Shown here: one piece after another, positions 1,356 to 60,610 of the stretch
How positions within the stretch are numbered: position 1 is the first letter of the stretch
Layout of the letters: every line of letters begins with the position of its first letter
From: Octopus vulgaris
Lineage: Eukaryota
Assembly: GCA_951406725.2 (NCBI GenBank)
Contig: OX597826.1
Location: 13,578,001 to 13,642,000, forward strand
Direction: 5' to 3'
DNA: 64,000 nt
Translations under genes and position numbers: made by a program
The notes under the pieces: generated by a model
Seen by the model: the letters and a program-made list of their open reading frames with translations, nothing else
Told to the model about the DNA's origin: nothing
Databases searched by the model: none

Positions 1356-1812
1356 ATCATTTCTAAAAGTCAATTTCCCCTTCAGGCCTTTTTCTTCTCA
1401 TGGTGTCAATAACAAACTTGTGATACTCTGTAGAAAACTCTCTAAATCTTTATCGAGCATTTGTGCAACATATTACAATATTCGACTGACCTATATTTGC
1501 AAGAATCTTTGTAAAAATCTTGACCATTTAATTGGACTTCTCAAACGGCTTGCCTTTCCTTTAACGTACGTTCCCACAAAAAGACACCTTATGCGCTACG
1601 TAACATACAGCTTGTACATCGCACATGCAGATGCGTCCACACATATGCAAAATCGATCCTAACAAGATACTGTTCCTTCTATTAGAGATTCAATTCAATA
1701 AACCTTCAGATATAATTTAGCGATGTTACATTTGGTCTCCTCCGGTTTCTTTAAGTGATGAAGACATTTTTCAAGGTAACCCTAGTATCGATCAACTGCA
1801 TTTCAATCTGTT

Positions 1813-1851
1813 TTAGGGTTAGGGTTAGTTAGGGTTAAGGTTAGGGTTAGG
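1813..1851 (+). repeat. Interstitial (TTAGGG)n-like repeat
   Basis: ttagggttagggttagttagggttaaggttagggttagg. Confidence 0.85.
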
Positions 1852-3036
1852 AGTGGGGGGAAGGGTATCTTTTTTTCTTCACAAATGTAAATAAACCCAA
1901 TCTGTTTCTTAAACGAGGGACCTATTCATACGACACAGAATGGTCTTTTTTTACCTCAATAGACGTCAGTGATTGGTTGAAATTGCAGAAATTGAAGAAA
2001 AAAAACAACAAATATCTTACAAACTATATAATTTTCTCAATAAAGCCAAGAGAAAAAGATGTTTTATAAACACATTCTACCAGTATACGAAGTGTAAAAT
2101 TTTTAGTTACCTAGAAATTATGTTAAAAACTGCCGTTCAAACCGAAAAGATCCGAGACATGTATACGTATCGATAAGAATTTTTCACCGGCGCCGTATCG
2201 AATTACTGATGCTGCCAGCCAACTACTTTCACCTTACACTTGAATGATACGTCTTTAATAAATATGTATTTCTTCACATAACTCATACAGTCTCATAACT
2301 TGTAATCCGTGTAACTATAAGTAAAATTTAATAGCTGCCTGCAGACATAAGAGTCTTTTATTCAATGTATGCATCACTGATATATCCTTCTGGTAGAAAA
2401 TTTATCTGTATTATATTCGCATATAAATATATCTCGTATATGATTAACTATTGCTGCGTCGGTTTGACGTCACCTTAGTCACTGCATTAACTTCTCGCAA
2501 ATTGTTTGGCAATTTCTGTTTTCAGCTAAGTTTATACGATCCCACTCTCATAGAAAAGGATAATGCATGAGATTTTCGTTTAGTTATGAAAACAGAAATA
2601 CGTTTTAAAAACTTTTACATTCGAAACTGATATCTCTCAGAAAAAATTTGTTAAAGTTTTAACAGACATAGAATACCGATTTCAAATTTTGGCACAAGGA
2701 CAGCAATTTTGAGACTTGGCCTGAAATTTGGGGAAGGTGGATAGTCGACAGCATCGACTTCAGTGCTCAACTTGTACTTATTTTATCGACCCCGAAAGGA
2801 TGAAAGGCGAAATCGACCTCGGCGGGATTTGAACTCACATCATAAATGCGGACGAAATGCTTTAAGCATTTTGTCCGGCGTGTTAACGGTCCTACCAGCT
2901 CGCCACCTTGCAAGTGTAGAATATTGAATCCTTGTTATGGTTTCTAATTCTGGCTCACGGCCAGCAATTTTAAGGGAGTGGTAAATCTATTTCATCAGCA
3001 CAATATGTAACTGATACTTAATTTTATTGACCCTCG

Positions 3037-4212
3037 TAAGGATGTCCTTGGCGGGATTTGAATGCAAAACCTAAGAAATGCCACTAAGCATTTTATCGGA
3101 CGCGCTAACGATTCCTCCAGTTCACCACCATTTTTTAAAAAAAGATTAGTTATGTCTACCGAGAGACTTGAAACCATGATCCTCATTTACCTTTATACTA
3201 TATAAGTCTGACGCTTTAAATATTGAGCTATGTGGGCAGCTCAAGTGACTGCTTCTTTACTCGAGTGGTTTTAATATTTCATTAGCTAAACCTTGCTTTT
3301 CCCTTCTGCTGTATTTTTCAGGATGACCGACAGATATTTTTAACAAACGCACTATTTCGTCGATTTGCATGCTTTCTTGCTATGGTTCAGTTATTGGTTG
3401 AGTGCAGCCACTTGAAAAAGGTAAAAGAAAAACTTATAGATTTGCTTTGACGGTGTTTTTTCAGCTGCAGTGCATGGGATTCTTGCTGGGAGATAGAAGT
3501 TAGACACTTCACTTGAAAGGAACTTCAATACTACGTCCTGTGCATTCAACAAGTACCTTACCAAAGTATCAGTGTATCGAATCAAACGGTCGACCACAGG
3601 GATGCCTGTTTTTTTGCAGGAGACAGCGACTTGCAGCTTTTAAATCTAAACAATAGCTGCGTCAATTTCACAAATCTCAGAGTTTTTACAAAATCCTTCT
3701 TGACTAAGCCCTTAAAAAGTGGAATATGTGGACCTATAACAAGGCGGTGATCTGGCAGAAGCATTAACACACAGGGGGAAAATGCTTAGATGAGAAGAGT
3801 TATTAATATTCAAGGTAGACGTTGTGTTGCTCCAACCTTGTTTTTCAATCGTGGGTTTCCAAATATTTCTAACTGTTGTTTAGTAGTATCCTACCTATTT
3901 CTACTTAATTTATGAAATGGTGTGCTACTGCATATCCTCTTATTAAAATTGGAGAGTGTTTTTAAAGGCGTACATTTGAAAGAATGCTCTTGGTTTTGTA
4001 ATTTATTGTAATAAGGATGTCCTTGGCGGGATTTGAATGCAAAACCTAAGAAATGCCACTAAGCATTTTATCGGATGCGCTAACGATTCTTCCAGCTCAC
4101 CGCCATTTTTTTTTAAAGATTGGTTATGTCCACCGAAAGACTTGAAACCATGACACTCATTTACCTGTATTTGTTTATACTATGTAAGTCTGACGCCCCA
4201 AATATCGAGCTA
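3037..4212. repeat. ~195-bp direct repeats (3037-3230, 4012-4212) flanking ~780 bp of unique DNA
   Basis: taaggatgtccttggcggg...gtctgacgc...gagcta duplicated with scattered substitutions. Confidence 0.85.
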
Positions 4213-4966
4213 ACCCTAACCCTTAAGTCATTTGGAGTTTTTAAAGAATTCCAGTAACAGAGTCATATTTGCGATACTTAGTTATCGCCCGAGGTTTACT
4301 TTTATGTATTTCTATGGAATGGTAAGAATATGCAATGACAACTCAGTTACCTTTGATTCCGTGCGTAAGTTCAGATTCGACAATTCTAAATTACAAGGTT
4401 ATAGAGATGTGTTTAATTAACTTTATTGTATGTAATAATGTCGACTTTTCTTCTGTACATTGCTTCTGATATCGCTTAATCTACACCAGTTATTCTCTAT
4501 CGTATTTTCGTGAGTCTTTTTGTTTTTTTTAAGATTGTCTAATATTCATAAGAATTGCTTCCGTCTTTCCAAGTAAGTTCGTAACTATTCAGAATAAATC
4601 GTATCTGTTTGCATGTCTCGACAGCTTCCTGTTCAGACTCTGTTAAATGTAACTGAAGCCTCACAGCAGCGAATGGTGCCCGTCTTGCCAGTGTTGAAAT
4701 ACAATACATTTCGTCTCTATATACGCTACTATTATTACTTAGACTATTAATAAAATGGTTATTGTTATGACCATTATGCTCATAAGTAAAATTAATGTTT
4801 CTCTTAGTTTTACTAATATCACCACTTATTAGTTATTAGCGTCACTCACATCATTTCCTTTATTCGCAGTCTCCCCGACGAACGTCCTCTGCAACTCTTT
4901 CTTTTTATTCTTCCTTTGACTAAACATTGTCTTACTTATCAGCAACTTTTTTTCTGTACAGGTGAA

Positions 4967-5006
<40 letters not shown>

Positions 5007-5299
5007 GCACAGGCCGCCTATATGTTGTGGGCACATTTGTAACGGCTTTGTAGTACCATCGGGCATCTTTAAAATCATATTTTTGCCCATCTTCTTTTCT
5101 GCTTTGTTGTTGCTGGAAATTGTCGTTGGATTTTGTTGCGATGTTCTACTTCATAGTGGCATAAGTCCAGAAGATGAACTGTTATCTTTTACGATATACA
5201 GAGTCTATGTTAACTTCGTGTCATATTTTTTTTAAAGATCTGTATAATAAAATATTTAAAATTTCGAGAGATATACACTAATGTCAAATCCGACGAGCT

Positions 5300-5697
5300 A
5301 ATCTTTTCTACTATAGGCACAAGGCCTGGATTTTGTGGGGAGTAAGATATTCGATCACATCGACTCCAATACTCAACTGGTACTTGATTTATCGACCTTG
5401 AAAGGATGAAAGGCAAAGTCGACCTCGGCCGAATTTGAACTCAGAACGTAAAGACAGATGAAATACCTATTTCTTTACGACCCACAAGGAGCTAAACACA
5501 GAGAGGACAAACAAGGACAAACGGATTAAGTCGATTATATCGACCCCAGTGCTTAACTGGTACTTATTTAATCGATCCCGAAAGGATGAAAGGCAAAGTC
5601 GACCTCGGTGGAATTTGAACTCAGAACGTAACGACAAACGAAATATCGCCAAGCATTTCGCCCTGCGTGCTAACGTTTCTGCCAGCTCGCCCCCTTC
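5300..5697 (-). mobile_element. Same SINE, dimer
   Basis: Reverse complement of head/body/tail. Junction aaatacc|tatttc at ~5466. Confidence 0.85.
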
Positions 5698-7472
5698 ATT
5701 CGATGAGCTAATAAGATACTAGTTTTCTCTTTCGACATAATGCAACATAATAACAATGACAATTAATAATGGTTTAATAAGCGACTGTGTAGCAGTCAAA
5801 TGTAATAATACCAAGCGATTATGAAGGAGTTTGGGGGAGTCGAAATGCTTAGGAATTTAGTGCATTAGATATTGAATTTGAAATTTTGTCACACAGAAGT
5901 AATATATCCGTCATACTATTTAGAATTAGTACAAACGAAACGATACGCGACCACTTCCATAAATATGTCTTTAAAATAGATAGACCCCTTCCAAAGAATA
6001 TAAATGCGTGGACTTTGACGTATTGTCAGAGAATTTTCCCACAGTAATTGTAAGCTTTGAGCATGTTTTTCTAAGATGTACTTAATTATGTTTAATGTAA
6101 GGAGGGAAACTTCTGATGTGTTTTTCAAAACATGGATAAGAAAATAATCACAAACGACTATTAAAACCAAAGAAAATTAAAAGAACGAAATGTTTAACAT
6201 TATAGAAAGAATTAAACTGAAACAAGATTTCCAGGAACAAACAGCACAAAATAGCGGAAGGAAGAAGTTAAGAAATGTAGAAATGTTATCAGATGTGTGC
6301 AAGCTGTAGAAGTAAAGAAAACAATGCTTTTGAACCATTATTTCTTTTTGAATGGAAAATACTCGCTGGAAACGATTATGTTAATCTTATAATAATAATC
6401 CGACGTTACACAAGTAGCTTGGGTGCAACATGTAAGATATATAGGAAGTTATTCAATGTGGAATAGAAAGTGGGAAGGAGGACCACATTGCACAATAAGA
6501 GTAATTATTATAAGCGAAAAAACAGCTCTGCAAGAAACTGGATATAATTTTGAACATATTTTCCACAAATGACATATTGATAAGTCAGAAGACACATTGA
6601 GAAACCCGTTGATGGAAAACAAATAGCAGGACACAATGTATTAACATTAATAACAAGTCTTTAAGAAAAGCAAAAGGCGGAAGAGAAGATATACGTGGTA
6701 ATGAAAGTGATTAAGGAAGTGAAGACATTTGCAAGATATCATAAAAGTTAAGTATTAAGATATATCGGTTTCATATTTTGGAACAAGGCCAGCAATTTCA
6801 TGGGAAAAGGGCTAGTCGATTACATCGACTCCAACGCTCAACTGACCCCGAAACGGATGTAAAACAAAGTCACCTCGGCAGAATTTGAAGTTAAAACGTG
6901 AAGACCGCCGGCATTCTGCTAAGCATCTTACCCGGCGTGCTTACAATTCTGCCAGTCGCCACCTTAAAGTATTAAGAAATATTCAAACACAAATTTCGTT
7001 TCTCTTGAAAGCAGCCAAATGGCAATCCTTAACATGAATGACAAAATTACTCCCAGGATTTGTTCCGATGCTTTGCACACTGATCTGAAATCCGGCCGAG
7101 TTCAACGGTGCACTCATACATTCAGGGACAAGATAAAATCTAGCAGCCCAGGGCAACGGATTGTTGGACTGTTAGGGTGTCGAACGAGATGCTATGCATA
7201 ATTTATTTTGGCTCTTTGTATTCGGTGTTCTTAGTTGGTAGATTTAATCCACCGCCTGTTTTAACAAAAAACCATCTGACTCTTGAGTTTCTTTAGCATT
7301 CGGGTCTGATCAACCACTGTCAAGATACTTTCTTCCTTTCTTCGTCTCAGTCGCAAAAACCCTGTAAAAGTATAATCATGGATTGTAACATTCTCACTGA
7401 CGTAGCCTTAAAATACGCTAACGCTTGATAACTTTAAGCATTTTGATACATCATCTGCTCCTGCTGCTGCTG

Positions 7473-7522
<50 letters not shown>

Positions 7523-7939
7523 GATGCTGCTGCTGCTGCTGCTAAAATGTTGGTTATTTAATGCTTAAAGGTTTTCTAAAAAACGAGTCAGCGCCTATGA
7601 ACTGTTTGCAGGGTCTGTAAGAGTGGCCGGGAAAAAAGTGGAGGGAAGAAACTACTACTCATTGGTTGCTATAGTTCGAAACATGTTTCAGGTTGTCAAG
7701 TGGTGGTGGTGGTGGTGGTGGTGGTGGTAATGAGAACGAACACAGACACGAACACACATATATGTGATGAGCTTCTTTCAACTTCCGCCTACCAAATCTA
7801 GTTTGGACAGCAAGAGACTATAGTAGAAGACACTTGCCCAAGGTGCCACACAGTGGGACTGAACCTGATACCTTGTGATTTGTGATTGAGATGCAAGCTT
7901 CATGCCGCACAACCACGCCGACGCCTGCGTATGTATATA

Positions 7940-9997: not shown

Positions 9998-10030
<33 letters not shown>

Positions 10031-10128
10031 ACGGGAAGCTTTATGAAAATAAACAAAAGACGAAGGCAGGTGGAAAACAAACGAACAATTGTATTAGTAT
10101 GGCGCTCAGGAAATATAAATAAAACAAG

Positions 10129-10166
10129 TCTTTAACGTTTCGAGCCTACGCTCTTCAACAGAAAGA
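10129..10166 (-). ncRNA. Minimal type I hammerhead-like motif, 3' pseudo-LTR (variant core CUGUUGA)
   Basis: UCUUU-CUGUUGA-A-GAGC(GUAG)GCUC-GAAA-CG-UU-AAAGA. Stem I UCUUU/AAAGA, loopless palindromic stem III. Confidence 0.7.
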
Positions 10167-10658
10167 TACACACAGAGAGAAAAACACAGAAAGAAGGAGA
10201 GAAAAAAAATGCGTGCAGTAGCTAACGAATCAACATGGCGATCTGATTTCGGCCAGAGGTCAAAGATCAAACATGAGACGCGAGAGCGAAATAAGGGGAG
10301 ATAATAGGGTTGAGGGACCAGCTAAAAGTGCGTGGGAGGGGTCTGGATGTGTGTATGTATAGGGTTGGTGTATGTATTAGTATGTATAAGGGTGTGTGTG
10401 TGTGTGTGTGTGTGTGTATGAGAGAGTATTAGTGCGTAGGATTGGTCTGGACGTGCGTATGTATGGGGTTGGTGTATGTATTAGTATGTATTAGTATGTA
10501 TTAGTACGTATTGGTATGTATAGGTGTGTGTGTGTGTGTGTGAGAGAGTATAAGTGCGTATGCGGGGTCTGGACGTGTGTATGTATAGGGTTGGTGTAAG
10601 TATTAGTATGTACTAGTATGTATTAGTACGTATTAGTATGTATTAGTTGGTGTGTGTA

Positions 10659-13334
10659 TTAGTATGGCACATCATATGTGATGTGATGTGTAAAGTCATG
10701 TGGTGTAGTGAGGAGAAGAGGGGGAGGGGAGAAGAGGGGGAGAAGGGGAGGGGAAGAAGAGGGGGAGGGGATGGTGAAGAGGAGAGGATGGGGAGAAGGA
10801 AGGGGAGGAGAGGGATGAAGGAGGAAAGAGGGAGAGGGGGAGAGAGAGGGAGAGGGGGAGAGAGGGGAGAGAGAAGGGGAGAGAGGGAGTGAGGGAGCAG
10901 AGGGAAGGGGAAGAGGGAGGGAGAAAGAGGGAAGAAGGGAAGAAGGGAAGGGGAGTAGGGGTGAAAGGATGAAGGACTGAAGAGGTAGTGGTCGGGGGGA
11001 GAAAGGATAGGTGAGGAGGGGGAGAGGGGGGTTAGATGAGGAGGGGGGAGAGTTGAGACCAAATGGCGTATAAGAGCGAAGAGAGAAGATTAATTCCTGT
11101 TCACGGCGCAAACGGGAATCCGGATGGCCTCTGTGTAAGGACAAACCGAACACAGATAGGTGTTGCAAGGAGTGACCGGTGGAGCGGAAATGGCGTGAGA
11201 CCGGTGTGTCGTTCGCAAGGTGGATGTCACGAAGGTGTTCCGCGAACCGGTCAGCCAAGCGGCGTCCCGTTTGTCCGATGTACAAGGAATTGCAGAGAGA
11301 GCAAGAGATGCAATAGATAATATTGCTGGAGGTGCAGGTGAAGGAGTGGATGATGGGATAGGGTCGATGGTGGGTGCTAGTGAGGCGGGTGGTGTTGGAG
11401 AGGTAAGGGCAAGTGCGGCAACGTGGGCGGAAGCAGGGGAACGAGCCGGGTTGGGAGGTAGGGTCAGGGAAGGAGCTATGGACCAAAAGGTCTCGAAGGT
11501 TGTGGGCTCGTTTGAAAGAGGGGAGGGGTCGGTTAGGGAAGAGGTGTGAAGTGGACGGGTCGGACTGGAGATGACGGAAAGCTCGAAGAATGGTGCGTTG
11601 GAGACGTAGGGTCGTGGGGTGGTAAGTGAGGGGAAAAGGGAGGCGGGAGACTACAGGGCGGGTTCGGGGAGAGAGAGCAGATACACGGTCCACGGACCGT
11701 GCTCTGGCAAGGGCGGTGTGGATAGTGGTGAGGGGGTATCCACGTAGGGTGAAGTGGTGAGCCATACGTTGAGACTGAGTCTCAAAGTCATGGTCGTCAC
11801 TACAGAGCCTACGTAGACGGAGGAATTGGGAATAGGGGATGGAAAGCTTGGTGTGTTCTGGGTGGGAGGAAGAGAAGTTGAGGTATGAGTGTGAGTCTGT
11901 GTGTTTGTAGTGAATGGAGGTGGTAAGAGTGGAGTCAAGAATGCTAACCGAAATGTCGAGGAAGGAGACAGAGGTGTTGGAGATAGTGGAAGTGAAGTGG
12001 AGGGCTGGATGGAAAGATTGGACGAAAGAGAGGAAGGAATCTAGATGTTCGCGGGAGAGTGAGGTGGCACCGATAATGTCGTCAATATAACGACCATATA
12101 GTTCAGGAGTGGGACCAGTGAAAGTAGAGAATATTTGGGCCTCAACATAGCCAACGAACAGGTTCGCATAGTTGGGGCCCATTCGCGTTCCCATGGCCAC
12201 TCCCGAGACCTGATGGTAGAACTCGCCCGCGAACGAGAAGCAGTTCAGAGTAAGGACAAGTTCGGCCAGACGAATGAGTGTGGAGGTGTCAGGTACAGGG
12301 TTAGAGCGGAGGTCAAGAAAGTGTCGAAGGGCCTGCAGTCCTTCGTGGTGAGGGATAACAGTATAGAGGCTTTGGATGTCCATAGTAAAAAGGATTTTGG
12401 AGGAGCCGGGAGGAAAGGAGAAAGAGTTGAAAAGCCGGAGAGCATGGTTGGTATCGTGGATGTGGGAGGGAAGAGATGCCACTAGGGGGGCAAGGACACG
12501 GTCGAGGTATTTAGAGATGAGCTCCGTGGGGCAGTTACAGGCGGAGACGATGGGGCGGCCAGGGTTGTTGGGTTTGTGGATTTTGGGGAGGAAGTAAATG
12601 GTGGGGGTACGTGGGGTTCGCACAATTAGGTTGGATGCGGTGCGGGGGAGACGGGAGGACGAGATGAGGTCTTGGACAGTAGAGGATACCGTCTGTTGGT
12701 AGCTACGTGTGGGGTTAGAGGGCAGAGGGGAATAGAAGGAGGTGTCATTGAGTTGGCGGAAAGCCTCGGCCCTATAGAGGTCCGCGCGCCACACCACTAC
12801 AGCTCCACCCTTGTCAGCCGGTTTGATGATAATGTCAGCGCGCCGTTGGAGGGAACGAAGAGCCAAGAGCTCAGCCGGGGAGATGTTGAGGCGGCGTTGG
12901 CGCCTGGAGAAGTTGAACCGCTCCAATGCACGCTGACAAGCGCCCGCGAAAAGATCCACTGCTAGGATCTGGCCAGGGGCAGGCGTCCACGGGGATGGTC
13001 GGCGGCCCAGGCCAGTGAAGCAGTCGTCCTCTTCGTTGGGTGTGGGTGGCGAGTCGTGGTAATGCGCACCCAACCGGACACGGCGTACAAAGCTGTGGAC
13101 ATCAACTCGCGTCTGGAATTCCTTACAGGATGGAGTGAGGGGGATGAAACGCAGACCCCTACCAAGGACGGAGCGTTCAGCCGCAGAGAGGGGAAGATCG
13201 GGGGGAATGGTAACAACAGACGGAAGTGGAGAAGGGGTAGGTGGAATAGAAGTGGGAGGGGTGGTAGGTCTCGTGGAGGTCTGAGGGGGAGGGATTGGGG
13301 AGGTGTGTGGGGGTGGTTGGGCGGGGCAGTAGGG
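10659..13334 (-). CDS. Penelope-type reverse transcriptase + GIY-YIG endonuclease (frame open to TAA at 13335-13337; track start 13073 is an internal TTG)
   Basis: Motifs KPADKGGAVVVW, FLPKIHK, GRPIVS, MDIQSLYT, GVAMGTRMGP, RYIDD, SQFLRLRRLCS. PCxxxxCxxC knuckle. IIYCISC...LYIGQT...RFAEH GIY-YIG. Upstream in-frame VVTIPPDLPLSAAERSVLGRGLRFIP. Confidence 0.95.
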   Translation of the reverse strand, partial: PYCPAQPPPHTSPIPPPQTSTRPTTPPTSIPPTPSPLPSVVTIPPDLPLSAAERSVLGRGLRFIPLTPSCKEFQTRVDVHSFVRRVRLGAHYHDSPPTPNEEDDCFTGLGRRPSPWTPAPGQILAVDLFAGACQRALERFNFSRRQRRLNISPAELLALRSLQRRADIIIKPADKGGAVVVWRADLYRAEAFRQLNDTSFYSPLPSNPTRSYQQTVSSTVQDLISSSRLPRTASNLIVRTPRTPTIYFLPKIHKPNNPGRPIVSACNCPTELISKYLDRVLAPLVASLPSHIHDTNHALRLFNSFSFPPGSSKILFTMDIQSLYTVIPHHEGLQALRHFLDLRSNPVPDTSTLIRLAELVLTLNCFSFAGEFYHQVSGVAMGTRMGPNYANLFVGYVEAQIFSTFTGPTPELYGRYIDDIIGATSLSREHLDSFLSFVQSFHPALHFTSTISNTSVSFLDISVSILDSTLTTSIHYKHTDSHSYLNFSSSHPEHTKLSIPYSQFLRLRRLCSDDHDFETQSQRMAHHFTLRGYPLTTIHTALARARSVDRVSALSPRTRPVVSRLPFPLTYHPTTLRLQRTILRAFRHLQSDPSTSHLFPNRPLPSFKRAHNLRDLLVHSSFPDPTSQPGSFPCFRPRCRTCPYLSNTTRLTSTHHRPYPIIHSFTCTSSNIIYCISCSLCNSLYIGQTGRRLADRFAEHLRDIHLANDTPVSRHFRSTGHSLQHLSVFGLSLHRGHPDSRLRREQELIFSLRSYTPFGLNSPPSSSNPPLPLLTYPFSPRPLPLQSFILSPLLPFPSSLLPSFSLPLPLPSAPSLPLSPSLSPLSPSPSLSPSPSFLLHPSPPLPSPHPLLFTIPSPSSSPPLLPLFSPPPLLLTTPHDFTHHITYDVPY

Positions 13335-13939
13335 TTAGGTGTAGGTGGATGGAGACTAACGGGAGGGGAGAAGGGGTTGTAGGGAGGGGCAGTGGGGTTA
13401 GGTGTGGGTGGATGGAGCCTATCGGGAGGGGAGAAGGGTGGTGGAGGAGTTGGGGTAGTGGCGTCGGGTAGGGTAGAATGGAAGAGTGATTGGAGTTTAC
13501 GAAGTTTGGTATCAGAAAGAAATTGATGGAAGAGTTGATTCAAATGGATAATGAAGCGTAGCGTGTTTGGAGCATAGAGAGGCGGCAGAGAGGAGAAGAA
13601 GGTGGAGAAAGCAGGAGGAAGAAGGCGGTTGATGGCATGTAGTTTGGAGAGATTGGAGCGAATGGTGGCCCGCATAAGGCGGTAAGATGTGGTGCGGAGT
13701 ATGGGTAAGATGGAAGAATCCGAGTGGAGAGCAGGGTGGAAGTGGAGGCGGAAACCTTTAGGGATGAGTCGGTGATGTAGGCAGCGGCTTAGGAAAGAGA
13801 CATGGCTAGAGAAGCGGGTTTTTTTAAAAAGAAGTAGAGAGAGATTAACGGACGGCTGAAGGCAATATACAGGAAGCGAACGTAGATGATCCTTCAAACG
13901 GTGATGGAGGGTGAGGAGGTAGGACCTAGGATCCGGCAT
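13220..13939 (-). CDS. N-terminal part of the same Penelope ORF (MPDPRSY...), in a different frame from the RT
   Basis: ATG at 13939. HVSFLSRCLHHRLIPKGFRL matches the typical PLE N-terminal motif. Pro-rich linker, then the frame switches by -1 somewhere in ~13220-13334 (lower bound approximate). Confidence 0.8.
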
Positions 13940-14665
13940 GATGGGATAACGGAAAAAAACGTTCGAAAAAACAAAAACAAAAAAAAACAAAAAACAAAAA
14001 TTATCGTATGAAAAAAATAGAAAAAAAGGATAGCGAAAAAAGGGGAAAAAACAAACGTTCAAAAAAACAAAAAAATAATAATCGTATGAAAAAACTAGAT
14101 AAGTAAGCGATAGGGGCAGAAAAGACGGGGCAAACGGAAAAGGGAAAGAAAGAAGGGAAGCAGAGAGAGGGGGAGGCAAAAAAAGGGGGTGCAGGCAGAG
14201 GAAACGGAGTATGGACATCCAGAGAGGGAAGAAAGACGGAAAGGAGAACAAAAATTCAGGAAAATGTGGAAAGCATGAAATGAATGTAAAAAAAGTGGTA
14301 ATATAAGAGAAAATAAAAATACAACAAACGGGACAGTTTATGCGAACAAGTTCAAGGTTGAAAGTTCAAGGTGAGAAATGTGTAGACGTCGTGGTATATT
14401 TTTTAAGGATTTCACATCAATGCAAAGTCACTTTGATCCGCGAAAGAGAGGTGCAGCCAATGGTAAGTATCCAAGAGGTAAAGAAAATCCAAGGTAGAGG
14501 TAAGTGTTGATAGTGGTATTGGTAGAATATAGGATGAAAGTGAGACCACGTGAGCGCATAATATATAACGGGAAGCTTTATGAAAATAAACAAAAGACGA
14601 AGGCAGGTGGAAAACAAACGAACAATTGTATTAGTATGGCGCTCAGGAAATATAAATAAAACAAG

Positions 14666-14703
14666 TCTTTAACGTTTCGAGCCTACGCTCTTCAACAGAA
14701 AGA
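14666..14703 (-). ncRNA. Minimal type I hammerhead-like motif, 5' pseudo-LTR (identical copy)
   Basis: Same sequence as 10129-10166, offset 4537 bp. Confidence 0.7.
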
Positions 14704-16037
14704 TACACACAGAGAGAAAACACAGAAAGAAGGAGAGAAAAAAAATGCGTGCAGTAGCTAACGAATCAACATGGCGATCTGATTTCGGCCAGAGGTCAAA
14801 GATCAAACATGAGACGCGAGAGCGAAATAAGGGGAGATAATAGGGTTGAGGGACCAGCTAAAAGTGCGTGGGAGGGGTCTGGATGTGTGTATGTATAGGG
14901 TTGGTGTATGTATTAGTATGTATAAGGGTGTGTGTGTGTGTGTGTGTGTGTGTATGAGAGAGTATTAGTGCGTAGGATTGGTCTGGACGTGCGTATGTAT
15001 GGGGTTGGTGTATGTATTAGTATGTATTAGTATGTATTAGTACGTATTGGTATGTATAGGTGTGTGTGTGTGTGTGTGAGAGAGTATAAGTGCGTATGCG
15101 GGGTCTGGACGTGTGTATGTATAGGGTTGGTGTAAGTATTAGTATGTACTAGTATGTATTAGTACGTATTAGTATGTATTAGTTGGTGTGTGTATTAGTA
15201 TGGCACATCATATGTGATGTGATGTGTAAAGTCATGTGGTGTAGTGAGGAGAAGAGGGGGAGGGGAGAAGAGGGGGAGAAGGGGAGGGGAAGAAGAGGGG
15301 GAGGGGATGGTGAAGAGGAGAGGATGGGGAGAAGGAAGGGGAGGAGAGGGATGAAGGAGGAAAGAGGGAGAGGGGGAGAGAGAGGGAGAGGAGGAGAGAG
15401 AAGGGGAGAGAGGGGAGAGAGGGAGTGAGGGAGCAGAGGGAAGGGGAAGAGGGAGGGAGAAAGAGGGAAGAAGGAGGGAAGAAGGGAAGGGGAGTAGGGG
15501 TGAAAGGATGAAGGACTGAAGAGGTAGTGGTCGGGGGAGAAAGGATAGGTGAGGAGGGGGGAGAGGGGGGTTAGATGAGGAGGGGGGAGAGTTGAGACCA
15601 AATGGCGTATAAGAGCGAAGAGAGAAGATTAATTCCTGTTCACGGCGCAAACGGGAATCCGGATGGCCTCTGTGTAAGGACAAACCGAACACAGATAGGT
15701 GTTGCAAGGAGTGACCGGTGGAGCGGAAATGGCGTGAGACCGGTGTGTCGTTCGCAAGGTGGATGTCACGAAGGTGTTCCGCGAACCGGTCAGCCAAGCG
15801 GCGTCCCGTTTGAACTACACGTGTTTCAGAATTGGAAGATTACAATATATATACATATACACAACTGTATACCTATATATGTATACATATATAAATACAT
15901 ATATGCAATCATTAGATTTACAATTATTCCAACACATCTTCAGGTTCTATTTCAAAATATTATATATCTAATTTTACATCCCATTAAATATAAGCAATAC
16001 AATGAAGCATTAAAGATTAAAAATTACGAATTAGAAA

Positions 16038-30947: not shown

Positions 30948-31372
30948 CAATTAAGGACAACTTCTTAATAAGGAAAACTTAACAAGAAATTATCTGGTAG
31001 ATAGCGTGAAAGACCTCATAAGAGAAAACATTTCGAAAATAATTCTTTCTTATAACATATTAATTTATATATAGAGGGCATTATTATACATACATGCCAC
31101 ACGCTAAGAGGGACAAAATTAGTCATTTCTACCAAAAATTTTACTAATCCCACCGAATGCAATTTTTCAAAGTAAGACATTTAAAAATATGGACTTGTAT
31201 CACCTGTGATTTCATACCTCTGTATTCATCAGCAAGCCTGGACGTATCATAAATGTCTTACTTTGAAAAATTGCATTCGGTGGGATTAGTAAAATTTTTG
31301 GTAGAAATGACTAATTTTGTCCCTCTTAGCGTGTGGCATGTATGTATAATAATGCCCTCTATATATAAATTA
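30942..31372 (-). mobile_element. 3'-end fragment of a probable Penelope-like element with 5' fold-back
   Basis: Apparently perfect ~123-bp inverted repeat (31061-31183 / 31250-31372) with a hammerhead in the spacer. (TA)n flanks. Confidence 0.7.
31192..31238 (-). ncRNA. Canonical type I hammerhead ribozyme
   Basis: GGCUUG-CUGAUGA-AUAC(AGAG)GUAU-GAAA-UCAC(AG)GUGA-UA-CAAGUC. All three stems and the full core are present. Confidence 0.88.
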
Positions 31373-36049: not shown

Positions 36050-36480
36050 ATATAAGGAGAGTTTTTTTGAAAAAAACAAAAGACGAAGACTGGTGGTGTA
36101 CAAACCAAACAGATGTATTAGTATAACGCTCAGGAATAGAAAAAGTCTTTAACGTTTCGAGCCTACGCTCTTCTACAGAAAGGAACACAGAAAAAAACAA
36201 GGAGAGAAACAAGTGTTTGTAATGGCTAACGATCTATCATGGCGACTGACTGCCGGACAAAAGGGTCACACAAGTGGGCGAAGAATTAGGGGAGATAACA
36301 AAGTAAAGATGACCCCCAACACGAAGGTGCGTGTGTGAATAAGAGAGTATGTATATGTGTGTGAAAGAGAGCTGGTGGTCTGGACGTGTGTGTGTGTATG
36401 TATGTGTAGGTGTGAAAATGTGGGGATGGGAATTGGTCAGTGCTGGTGTGTGGGGTGGTATTCTTCTTTGGGCTTTGATA
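36050..36480 (-). mobile_element. Diverged 3'-end fragment of a related Penelope-like element
   Basis: Aligns by eye to 10031-10400 (aaacaaaagacgaag, tgtattagta..cgctcagga, gtctttaacgtttcgagcctacgctcttc, catggcga, ggggagataa, gtctggacgtg). Boundaries approximate. Confidence 0.85.
36147..36182 (-). ncRNA. Hammerhead-like motif (core CUGUAGA)
   Basis: CUUU-CUGUAGA-A-GAGC(GUAG)GCUC-GAAACGUU-AAAG. Differs from the pLTR core only at the free position 7. Confidence 0.65.
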
Positions 36481-48279: not shown

Positions 48280-50470
48280 TAGTAAGTGCAAGGTTCAGCG
48301 AAAAGCCGATAACGGCCACTGAAATACGAGAAGTGATTGCACAAGTCGCAAATTGCCAGGCTTAGATAGTCTGCCCTATGAATTTTATGTATTCGTGCCC
48401 GATTTGTCTGGCGACGTTATGTCGAACAGTTACTGACGTTAGTTGGGAAGTGGTGACACTGCTGAAGAAGGACGCCAACAGTGGGGACATACTAGGGATT
48501 TTTCGGCCCACAATTCTACTAAACACTAAGTTTAAGATTTTGGTCAAGGTGTTGGCGAAAAGGTTGGTGATTGTCGTTGGTTATCTTGTAGGAGAAGTAC
48601 AAACATGCACAATCCCAAACAGGTCTATCCACGACAACCTCCACCTTATGCGATACATCATAGAGAGGGCTGGAACTAAAGCTGGCTTCGGTGGGGCCCT
48701 GATCCATTTGGATCAATCAAATGCATTCGATAGAGTCGAGCATCGCTACCTGGAAGCTGTCCTTAAAGCGGACAGTTTCGAACCCTTTTTCAGAGGGTGG
48801 ATCGCTGTATTGCACAGCGGAACCTTCTCGGTGGTCAAAGTAAATGGCCATCTATCAGAACCGCTTAGCATCGTACACTCGGTCCGTCAGCGCTGCCTAA
48901 TGTCACCACTTCTGTACGTGCTGGCTCTCGAGCCGAGAAGTAGGCGAGCTTGCGACTGGGCACCTGGAGAGGCTGTCAGGTGGCCCCGTCGGACGCTAGA
49001 CTGCCGGACTAGTTAAATTGCTCGGGTTCTGGTTTGGTCTCGACCACCCGGTCGATAAGAACTGGGACAAGGTGACGAACAGGATGGTCAATCTTATCCA
49101 GAAATGGGTTGAGAGGAAGCTGTCCTTGAAAGGTCGGGCAGAGGTGGCGAATACCTACAACACCTCCGTCATCATTTATCATCTGACGGTTGTGCCTTTC
49201 CCCAGTTACTGCTTGATCAAGTTGGAGTGTCTCTTGTTCATGTTCTTGTAGAAGGGGCGCGTTTCAATGGTCAGGCAGTCAATCTACTGTCAGCTCCCTC
49301 TGAGTGGCGGCTTAGGCATGCCGTGGCTTTTGATGGGCAGATATGCGCTCAGATTGCGCCATCTGCAACGATTTCTAGAAGATGAACGTGTGTGGGCTCC
49401 GTTTGTGAGGCACATGTGTCCGCAACTCGTCTCTTTAACGGAGCTGCAGTCCTGGGTGAAGGGTAAACCAAGAGTGGGCGCCTGGCACCTAGAATGTCGT
49501 CAGACGCTCACTGTCCTCTACCAGTCGGGCAGTAGGATCGGTGGATGTTCCACTTTAGCAATCTATAGACGATTAGTGACGGGAAAGTGCGACGACGTCC
49601 TAAGGGAAACTGGGCGTTGATGAAGATGAACTGACTAGTATGTTTCGGAGGACTTTTCGGTCGGGGACTATTATGGATAATTTCCAGGTGTCTTTGGCTT
49701 GGCGGTACTACCGGGGTGGGGGTGGGGCACCACCGGTTAGTGGTAAACTCTACAGTCACAGATGTGCTGGCAGACGGGCTTGACCGAGGTGCACGCAGAG
49801 CAACGAAACCGTTCTGCATGCACTCATTCAGTTTCCGGTAATTGTTGACTTATGGAGTTATGCCGAACAGCTGCTGTCGCGTGTGGAACGGATCCGTCAG
49901 TCGTCCGCCCCATAGTGATGATTGTCCTGCTGTCCTCCTTTAATCGGGCAGACAAGGCAGTTTTCCTTTACCTGGTTGCTGTGGCGAAAGAGGTTGTCTG
50001 GTGGACGAGGCTGAAAGGAACGGGGACAGTGACGTTCCTCTTTAGTAAAGGCCTCATCGACTTTTTAAGTTTCACTTGAAAACCAAAGTGAGGGTGGAGA
50101 GGCGAGTGTTGACCTCGAGTGAATTTATGAAAAGGAGTGTGAAAGTTGCGAAAATGGCAAGAGTGGATGGTGCCACTCTCAATGTAGAGCTGTGAGTCGG
50201 AGGAAAGGAGTTGGAAAAGGTATCCGTCCGAGGTATTCAGGGTCGTCTTGGATGGTGGGGATATCCCTAGGGGTCCTCCTCTGTCAGAAGGACCTCTATC
50301 ACAATTTTCTTTTACATATTGCTGCACACTATATATACCTCTCTTCTTTTAATGTAAACTGTATATACCATTTTTTTTCTTGTCATTCCATTATGTATAA
50401 GCCCCCAATTTTTATGTCTATCTTTGTATTGTCCCTTTATTCTTCGCCTTGGTGGTAAATAAAAGAAATT
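48280..50470 (+). mobile_element. 5'-truncated, decayed L1/Tx1-type LINE (RT pseudogene)
   Basis: FRPTILLNTKFKILVKVLAKRL, LDQSNAFDRVEH, SVRQRCLMSPLLY, LSLKGRAEVAN, GGLGMP across broken ORFs. YADD region appears deleted. Ends aataaaagaaa(tta)n. Confidence 0.85.
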
Positions 50471-58489: not shown

Positions 58490-60610
58490 ATAGTAGGCAG
58501 TGTGTTACATATCCCTGGACCCCAATAATTACAAGTATAAACCTGAACTTGCAATCTGGATAGAATAACAGCAGATTTCTCAATAATTCAGAGTAGGTGT
58601 TCACTTTTTCACTGAACCTTAGCCTTATGTTAACATCTGCTGAGCAGCTAATTTCCACAAATGTACATAGTTTCTCTTCTCTATCCCAAATCATTATATC
58701 AGGTTTGTTGTGCTTACATTTTACAGAGGTCTTCACCCCATATTATTATGAGTAGCTATGGCTTCTACCATACAGTGGGTTCTTGTCTTTGTCCTCAGGG
58801 TTATCCTTCCGACGGATTTCATTATAGAGTATCCTAGCTACAACATCATATCTCATTGGTAGATAATACCTTGATGACATTTTCGGACAGCTGCTTATGA
58901 TGTGGGTGATATCTTCGGTGTTAATTTCACAAAGTCTGCATTAGTTGTCAAGTTTTACTGCTTTTCCTGCATCTCTATCCCTTTTGTGCATCAGGTACTT
59001 GGCTGATGTTTCCTCATCTTTGATTGCAAACGCATATCCTTCAAAGTGGGAGGTAGTAATCCGGCTATTGGTCCATGATAGACTGCTTTGATAATCAATG
59101 TTACTATAATCTCGGAGCTTTCTACTAACATATCCATGCATAGTCTTCTGCTCATATAGGCTCATCCTTTCATCTGATGATACGTTGCGATAGAGTCGTG
59201 TGACTTCTTTGGGCATGTATTCTAGCTTATCTGACAAGGAATGTTGGTCAGGGAGCTGCCTTCCAAGTCTTATGATGTTATCAGCCTCATGTGTGCGAAC
59301 TTGGTCAAGGGATGCACTTCGATACTTGGTGGATAAAAGATGTTGCCGAAAGGATATGATACGACATTCAAAGGCATTTAGGATCAATGTTAAGCCTCTG
59401 CCGCCTTGTTTTTGTTTGCTCTACGTCACTGTTTATGTGGAAATTATGAGTACTTGTTAGTATTTTTCGGGTTTTCACATCAACGGCCCGGGTCTCATCG
59501 AGCGTCCAATCAAGCATCCCAAGTGAGTACTGGCACAGCAAACACATTGTGGGCCACGGTTTATTGAATGCAGAGAGTTCTGAGGTCCAAAGTTTCTTTA
59601 TTCGGCTGTAATATTCTTTAGTGACGCGTGTTTTGTTACCGGTGCCATTGTAAGATATGTTTTCATCTACGCCCCCCTTTCTCACAACCATATAACAAGA
59701 TTTATCCTGACCAAAATTCAACCCTACATCCTTTGAGGATGTTGTAACTAGGTCAAGGCTCTTTTTAATTTCATGCATATTCTTTGCATGAAGTTTCAAG
59801 TCATCCACAAACCAACAGTAATTTTGGTATTTCTGTTTCCTTGTGAACCAGTGAGATATCCTTCAGACCTTCGTAACATGGATGACAAGGGGTTTATAGA
59901 CAATAGAAACAACATCACTGAGAGTTTGTTCCCTTGAAATATGCCTCTGCAATACTGTATTCTATCAGTGATAATACAGTTACTCCTTGTGTTTAATTTC
60001 AAGATGGTGGCACACCATGAAGTCAAGTCAGATATGGCTTTGACTATGCGCACTAAAACTTTAGCAAACTGAAGCGCTTCTAGCATCCATGAGTGGGGAA
60101 CAGAGTCAAAGGCTTTCTTGCTACTTTGAAACTAGGTTCCTTCAATGCTCGGCAACTCTGGCATTACAGTTTCGTTGATTAACAATTGCTCGGCACATCA
60201 CCAGACTCCTTTCTTCCCAGCAGCTTGTTCTGCTGTGATGATGTTATTGATTTCACAATGGTCCTAGGAGAGGTTTAAGCATGTTGTACACTTCTTATAC
60301 ATTCAGTTCTGGCATGCAATTGACTAGTAGTTTTTGTCACGTGGTGGTTCTGCATTTGAGGATCAATGTTGTCTCCGCAGAACTAACCAGTGTGGTACGC
60401 TACTGTTCCCATTGAGAGCTAGCTGGTAGAGATTGATAAGATATGGTCGGTAGAAGGTTAGCACCTTGTACCAATATCTAATAATCAAGTCTCTTCCAGT
60501 TGCTTTTCCATCCTGGAGTTTCTGAATCACGGCTGCAAAAGTTTCACCATCATTGTTGCATGTCTTGGGTGTAATGCAGGAGCAATAACTTCTTCGGATT
60601 TCCTCCAGCC
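58490..60610 (-). mobile_element. Decayed R4/Dong-like non-LTR retrotransposon (RT + CCHC + restriction-like endonuclease)
   Basis: KAFDSVPHSW, RGIFQGNKLS, MDDLKL, CRLC..EDITHIISSC, KPDIMIWDREEKLCTFVEISC in broken frames. Confidence 0.85.

Follow-up and report, generated by a model that had tools for sequence, protein, structure and literature searches.

The window analysed here, i.e., the whole stretch of 64,000 nucleotides of Octopus vulgaris DNA (contig OX597826.1, positions 13,578,001 to 13,642,000 of the forward strand), carries on its minus strand a Penelope-like element (PLE) with partial-tandem pLTRs. The 3′ pLTR (10024..11273, minus strand) comprises the end of the endonuclease region, the 3′ UTR, a hammerhead and about 104 nt of 3′ tail, and ends in a (TA)n microsatellite, while the 5′ pLTR (14561..15812, minus strand) is a 5′-truncated tandem copy; in each of them some 104 nt separate the hammerhead from the 3′ end. 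In a global alignment the two pLTRs are 99.1% identical over 1255 columns, with 1 mismatch and 10 gap columns. Judged by its sequence, the element is a young, recent insertion that already carried a uridine at position 6 of the hammerhead core (U6).

The reverse transcriptase (RT) and the C-terminal GIY-YIG endonuclease share one open frame (10659..13334, minus strand). The RT was recognized as Pfam RVT_1 at about 12012-12581 (E 1.1e-7, above the cut-off) and has the DKG motif; the endonuclease, at about 11220-11321, scored below the cut-off (E 0.0063), and a CX4CxxC linker is found at about 11409-11435 (C566-x4-C571-xx-C574 in protein P0121). Among 37 sequences DKG, R628, H632 and H647 are invariant, and C610, C613 and H653 nearly so. 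Homologues of the protein numbered 1744 among 8000 scored candidate proteins at E <= 1e-30, the best being 55-56% identical. The N-terminal part of the PLE ORF, with its ATG at 13939 (13240..13939, minus strand, lower end approximate), does not share the frame of the RT part, and in tblastn five of five full-length homologues matched frame -2 and then frame -1. The frameshift sits in a C-rich, proline-coding tandem duplication (about 13240-13460, minus strand) that is missing in the aligned homologues; it may be an assembly error or real. From the end of the 5′ pLTR to the ATG runs an unusually long (~620 nt), pyrimidine-rich leader (13940-14560, minus strand). With regard to a splice-acceptor reading of the U-rich flank at the hammerhead, no splice donor GT(A/G)AG was found on the element strand from 14700 to 13900, and a U-rich 5′ flank is a feature of the published consensus for such hammerheads too.

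The element shares with the Neptune EN+ PLEs of PMC8557442 a DKG RT, an endonuclease of the GIY-YIG type at the C terminus, a CX2-5CxxC linker, partial-tandem pLTRs and insertion at a (TA)n target. The linker, the position of the endonuclease and the target fit a Neptune-type PLE, the linker type being common to Neptune and Nematis (PMC8557442). A quick protein tree (52 rows, none of them a named reference), built on the 258 residues at the C terminus, set the window element on a long branch and left its position unresolved. It is unlike the published Neptune elements in that its ORF is frameshifted in the assembly.

The hammerhead of the 3′ pLTR (copy A, 10129..10166, minus strand) is a minimal type I motif. 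Helix I (UCUUU/AAAGA, 5 bp) encloses the core CUGUUGA (C3 at 10161, U6 at 10158), which is followed by one extra A, by helix II, GAGC(GUAG)GCUC (10153-10142), and by GAAA-CGU-U, where the ACGU palindrome occupies 10138-10135 and H17 is the U at 10134, with the predicted cut 3′ of this U17. Copy B (14666..14703, minus strand), in the 5′ pLTR, is identical to copy A at an offset of +4537, with its core at 14698, U6 at 14695 and a predicted cut 3′ of 14671. Copy C (36147..36182, minus strand) comes from a sister subfamily and is held in a 5′-truncated 3′-end remnant with no ORF left (36053..36430, minus strand, upper boundary approximate), which is 75% identical to the main element over 221 nt; its core at 36178 reads CUGUAGA (U6 at 36175), with A7 where copy A has U7, and its helix I is 4 bp long. 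In all three copies helix III is the loopless ACGU palindrome, C3, U4, G5, G8, A9, G12, A13, A14, A15.1, U16.1 and H17 are present, and position 6 is U, i.e., the A6 of CUGANGA is absent. Because A6 is replaced by U in 3/3 copies, the motif is classed as a variant and not as a plain member: it is a minimal PLE hammerhead with U6 and a core otherwise of the standard metazoan type. The original prediction of a non-canonical CUGUNGA hammerhead in a Neptune-type element, common to its subfamilies, with loopless palindromes, two copies 4537 nt apart and a predicted new 5′ end at 14670, was correct in these respects, coordinates included.

A pattern search of the whole window with up to three mismatches returned exactly these three matches (mean 0.00 in 100 dinucleotide shuffles), and a covariance model built from the window motifs and related motifs revealed no fourth copy in the window (three strong hits, three more at E > 1). 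Over 10080-10260 the Rfam covariance models gave no match with an E of 10 or below, a null result that is uninformative because the canonical-core hammerhead at 31232, taken as a control, likewise had no hammerhead match among its 11 hits; for the window, no hammerhead was among the 150 of 306 matches listed, which are microsatellite artefacts. Two alternative explanations of U6 were rejected. A register shifted three bases downstream in copies A and B (UUGAAGA, with a U3-G8 wobble) would restore A at position 6, but it uses up half of helix II, and at the base of helix I a G would face an A; copy C would then have A at position 4. Sequencing error would have to produce one and the same base at three loci, and the differences between the pLTRs are nearly all indels.

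The canonical-core hammerhead (CUGAUGA, type I, 31192-31238, minus strand) has a short looped helix III, in a style similar to Hydra-clade motifs (PMC8557442), and sits in a 66-nt spacer within an inverted repeat that is perfect over 123 bp, next to (TA)n; the region as a whole (31061-31372) probably represents a PLE 3′ end that is truncated and accompanied by an inverted copy. The host genome is that of an animal, with many microsatellites, and some of its SINE-like repeats resemble those of octopus; broken open frames at 48366-49016 (plus strand) and 58941-59862 (minus strand) look by eye like fragments of non-LTR reverse transcriptases.

Minimal hammerheads (min-HHRs) in the pLTRs of metazoan PLEs have been described as inactive in the monomer and as cleaving weakly, and only as dimers or trimers (PMC4209133). 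Their consensus (CUGANGAH, G10.1-C11.1, palindromic 15.2/16.2, NUH and the U-rich 5′ flank; PMC4209133) is matched by the window motifs in every feature but position 6, and the likeness extends to the type I topology, the presence in both pLTRs, the 4-5 bp helix I, the extra base after A9, the loopless palindromic helix III and the common GUU triplet. The difference is that A6 was present in 56/56 aligned published min-HHRs, which had been collected with a descriptor that required canonical boxes; the core variants given in that source are U3-A8 and U3-G8 at 3/8, with none at position 6 (PMC4209133), and A6 is present in 34/34 rows of File S2 of PMC8557442. The available portions of PMC11167929, PMC6765202, PMC6155905, PMC11014351 and bioRxiv 10.64898/2026.07.22.740005 make no mention of a position-6 variant, and literature searches, whose reach did not include the dimeric PLE hammerhead work of Lunse et al. 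(PMC5785218), returned no natural A6U hammerhead. The nearest precedent is the natural A6C hammerhead of phage Bcep176, which is slow but active, with a kobs below 0.1 per min (PMC3088659); an A6C mutant was measured at 3.6e-6 per min in 0.3 mM Mg2+ and 0.33 in 10 mM, and prefers Mn2+ (PMC7151607). This case resembles the window motif in having a natural pyrimidine at position 6, with an activity that is there reduced yet real (PMC3088659, PMC7151607), and it differs in being C and not U, a single phage intergenic case with a full helix III architecture and no retrotransposon dimer motif. Elsewhere in the same turn, a U4C hammerhead still permits viroid infectivity (PMC3088659). When a type III hammerhead was mutagenized comprehensively, single changes in the CUGA turn all gave low activity (PMC9901934).

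With 99.1% identity between their pLTRs, copies A and B make up a single sample, and the independent samples of U6 are two, A and C. Between these, the motif is identical at 35/36 positions without indels, the sole change falling at the free N7, as had been proposed, and the flanks are 73-83% identical, depending on gap costs (four gap settings). With ungapped columns only, the flanks match at 163/210 to 171/206 (77-83%; one-sided Fisher P 0.002-0.016), and with indels counted as events at 162/222 to 171/227 (73-75%; one-sided Fisher P 4e-4 to 1e-3). When corrected for scanning, i.e., for any 36-column window as good, 1654-7818 of 20000 shuffles (ungapped) or 384-949 of 20000 (counting indels) did as well, which amounts to 0.02-0.39; the fair comparison is the a priori one, because the motif was defined by its structure. 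The 31-nt exact run that the copies share goes a few bases beyond helix I, loop II and the bases directly beyond helix I are invariant as well, and the flanks hold other perfect A/C blocks of 10, 11 and 15 nt, some of them in the 3′ tail.

These comparisons lend moderate support to the view that the hammerhead fold looks constrained while U6 was in place. Parsimony puts U6 in the common ancestor of both subfamilies, and during its presence the rest of the core would have been under purifying selection. The retention of U6 itself says little, because any free site keeps its base about 75-80% of the time and n = 2. The contrast between motif and flanks, set beforehand as the test on which the claim of a selected core variant could fall, came out with the motif higher; that claim survives with moderate strength for the motif and not for U6 itself, in view also of the scan-corrected values, and the flanks described as diverged are so only to a moderate degree, with their perfect blocks.

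Related elements were sought in a collection of genome contigs. An exact-pattern scan of it, with positions 6 and 7 and loop II left free, gave no match; a protein-alignment scan gave 10 loci from 23 candidate stretches. Nine of these are PLEs of the eukaryotic type (44-59% identity) on contigs of one MAG, and in the tenth (L010), which matches at 25%, no hammerhead motif could be detected. The contigs of L001-L009 (CBDDTI01...) belong to a GTDB MAG labelled as a bacterium, at least nine contigs of which hold eukaryotic-type PLE loci, and this points to eukaryotic contamination. All ten hammerheads of the related elements have A6. The core is canonical in three (L003, L007, L008), and in seven it has a different change in the same turn, U4C (CCGACGA): L001:2615(+), L002:2062(+), L005:4119(+), L006:1991(+), L004:2640(-), L009:5302(+) and L009:2216(-). 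Further canonical-core minimal hammerheads, at L001:4739(+) and L005:2187(+) and 295(-), belong to other repeat families and were left out of the ten.

The U4C copies, which were absent from the earlier reading, form one young family with 85-98% nucleotide identity, in which C4 is found in 7/7 and whose proteins are 55-59% identical to that of the window element. When its two most diverged members are compared with L002, 33/34 and 32/34 positions agree in the hammerhead, against 88/101 and 85/101 in the UTR. The family has the G(A/G)GC/GCUC helix II, the tetraloop size and the ACGU palindrome of the window element, and its hammerhead is that of the published Acropora Neptune except for U4C, which lends indirect support to placing the window element in Neptune; the Acropora digitifera Neptune hammerhead in turn has a helix II nearly identical to that of the window (GGGC/GCUC, tetraloop) and the same ACGU palindrome (PMC4209133). 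Among eight distinct sequences of three families, seven of eight pairs in helices I and II are changed on both sides, a figure reached in none of 500 shuffles, a test that kinship inflates, and compared with 0-2 in slid controls. This covariation arises across the families, where the core is invariant and the helix sequence varies, and there is none among the U6 copies themselves; it supports the hammerhead fold and bears no information on position 6. As the relatives have A6 in 10/10, U6 is the derived state. The uridine turn of Neptune-type hammerheads thus seems open to changes that extend to whole families (A6U, U4C), and the occurrence of U4C in a related family points to a relaxed constraint on the turn and not to a special U6.

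Nearest-neighbour calculations (secondary structure only, 37 °C) predict that in the monomer U6 forms a pair with A15.1, by which the core is closed onto the palindrome through UGU(U)/(A)ACG, with a probability of 0.98 for copy A and 0.57 for copy C; with A6 this is 0.00, and the pairing is lost in both subfamilies. A double hammerhead is calculated to be less stable than two folded monomers by 7.5 (A) and 3.8 (C) kcal/mol, and by 5.4 and 2.8 kcal/mol for the A6 versions; the dimer being disfavoured, pairing of two motifs would need help. Mispairing of the core with the palindrome is also predicted, via C7, for the A6 copies L001, L004 and both L009 (0.87-1.00) and more weakly for L008 (0.7), and is mostly absent in L003 and the second L001 motif, so that the closed hairpin is no special property of U6. 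The folding z-scores (-1.46 and 0.21) are unremarkable.

The reading that we favour, with confidence and doubt in about equal measure, is that the motif is an attenuated PLE ribozyme, assisted by dimerization and by protein, which likely still cleaves slowly; U6 would then reduce the rate of cleavage without abolishing it. A transcript that begins in the 5′ pLTR would include one hammerhead or both, and the RT-endonuclease, probably as a dimer, would join two motifs through ACGU and swapped helix I strands, either in trans or, over a distance of 4.5 kb, in cis. Cleavage at a slow rate, 3′ of U17 (predicted 3′ of 14671 and of 10134), may then trim or process a tandem precursor RNA. Fast cleavage would not be needed in such a scheme, and Neptune-type families could for that reason fix weak turn variants such as A6U and U4C. 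Pairing of the two pLTR copies fits, by analogy, the published dimer model (PMC4209133). A model of protein dependence is the anole Poseidon element (PAc), in which the pLTR hammerhead, again close to the 3′ tail, is active in cleavage only when the PLE protein, itself a predicted dimer, is present (PMC11167929). It differs in its clade and in that its hammerhead overlaps the start codon (PMC11167929), whereas in the window element the cut site precedes the ATG by about 730 nt.

In favour of a ribozyme speak the restriction of the A/C change to N7, the covariation of the helices, the recent insertion that carries U6, the separate U4C family, and the measurable activity that A6C and U4C retain (PMC3088659, PMC7151607). 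Against it, the U6 motif is predicted to be a closed hairpin, with a dimer disfavoured by 3.8-7.5 kcal/mol; the scan-corrected conservation is weak, the independent U6 samples are only two and the relatives have A6 in 10/10. Min-HHRs are already weak, and A6U may therefore bring the activity to zero. In the anole element, moreover, catalytic mutants left in vitro insertion unimpaired and RNA-seq showed no ends at the cut site (PMC11167929), so selection may not act on cleavage.

These last findings lead to a tentative alternative, doubtful though serious, in which the U6 motif does not cleave and its fold and sequence are kept for binding of the PLE protein, in RNP assembly, template choice or positioning of the RT near the 3′ tail. 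Besides the unimpaired anole mutants, it can draw on the Naiad PLEs, which multiply without canonical hammerheads (PMC8557442), on the low activity of CUGA-turn mutants (PMC9901934), and on the invariance between A and C of loop II, of the bases past helix I and of blocks in the 3′ tail, as recognition by a protein predicts. It does not account well for the fact that N7, which is catalytically free, took the sole change within the motif and all other core bases were kept, nor for the invariance across families of the core rather than of the helix sequence, and A6C and U4C variants are, after all, measurably active (PMC3088659, PMC7151607).

That there was no selection on the motif at all is decidedly unlikely. 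A6U would in this case have inactivated the ancestor, and the identity of A and C would reflect either chance, the 3′ end being conserved in general, or a recent exchange between the subfamilies. Flanks that are themselves 73-83% identical, scan-corrected values of 0.02-0.39 and only two independent samples are compatible with such an account. Against it stand the a priori definition of the motif by its structure (P 4e-4 to 0.016), the like pattern in the U4C family, and the fact that diverged sequence borders the identical block on either side, which would call for two crossovers in an exchange. Very unlikely, finally, is selection for U6 itself, either as a lock, to be opened by the PLE protein, in which its pairing with A15.1 keeps the core closed onto the palindrome, or as a shift in metal requirement of the kind seen with A6C, which alters cation preference (PMC7151607): the predicted pairing does come and go with U6 in both subfamilies, but similar mispairing in A6 copies (L001, L004, L009, weaker in L008, and mostly not in L003 or the second L001 motif), the ~75-80% chance of retaining U6 and the unremarkable z-scores speak against it.

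The attenuated-ribozyme reading bears on a question that is unsettled for PLEs in general, as their hammerheads are widely conserved, weak in vitro and, in one reconstituted system, dispensable for insertion (PMC11167929). Core variants fixed in young families are natural tests of a catalytic versus a non-catalytic role. If the A6U and U4C motifs cleave with protein, the rule at position 6 would be dependent on context and a protein could compensate for its violation; if they do not, the fold would owe its conservation to some task other than catalysis. Turn variants escape, by design, any survey that requires CUGANGA, which would leave PLE hammerheads undercounted, and the canonical-core descriptor used first here in fact missed 7/7 U4C copies. 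A more far-reaching proposal, rather unlikely at present, is that the uridine turn has been rewired repeatedly in Neptune-type elements (A6U here, U4C elsewhere) and that the variants are gated by protein, the core of the monomer lying on the palindrome until a dimeric RT-endonuclease opens it and compensates for the lost contacts. If this were true, a class of protein-dependent hammerheads would have been overlooked by canonical-core searches across animal genomes.
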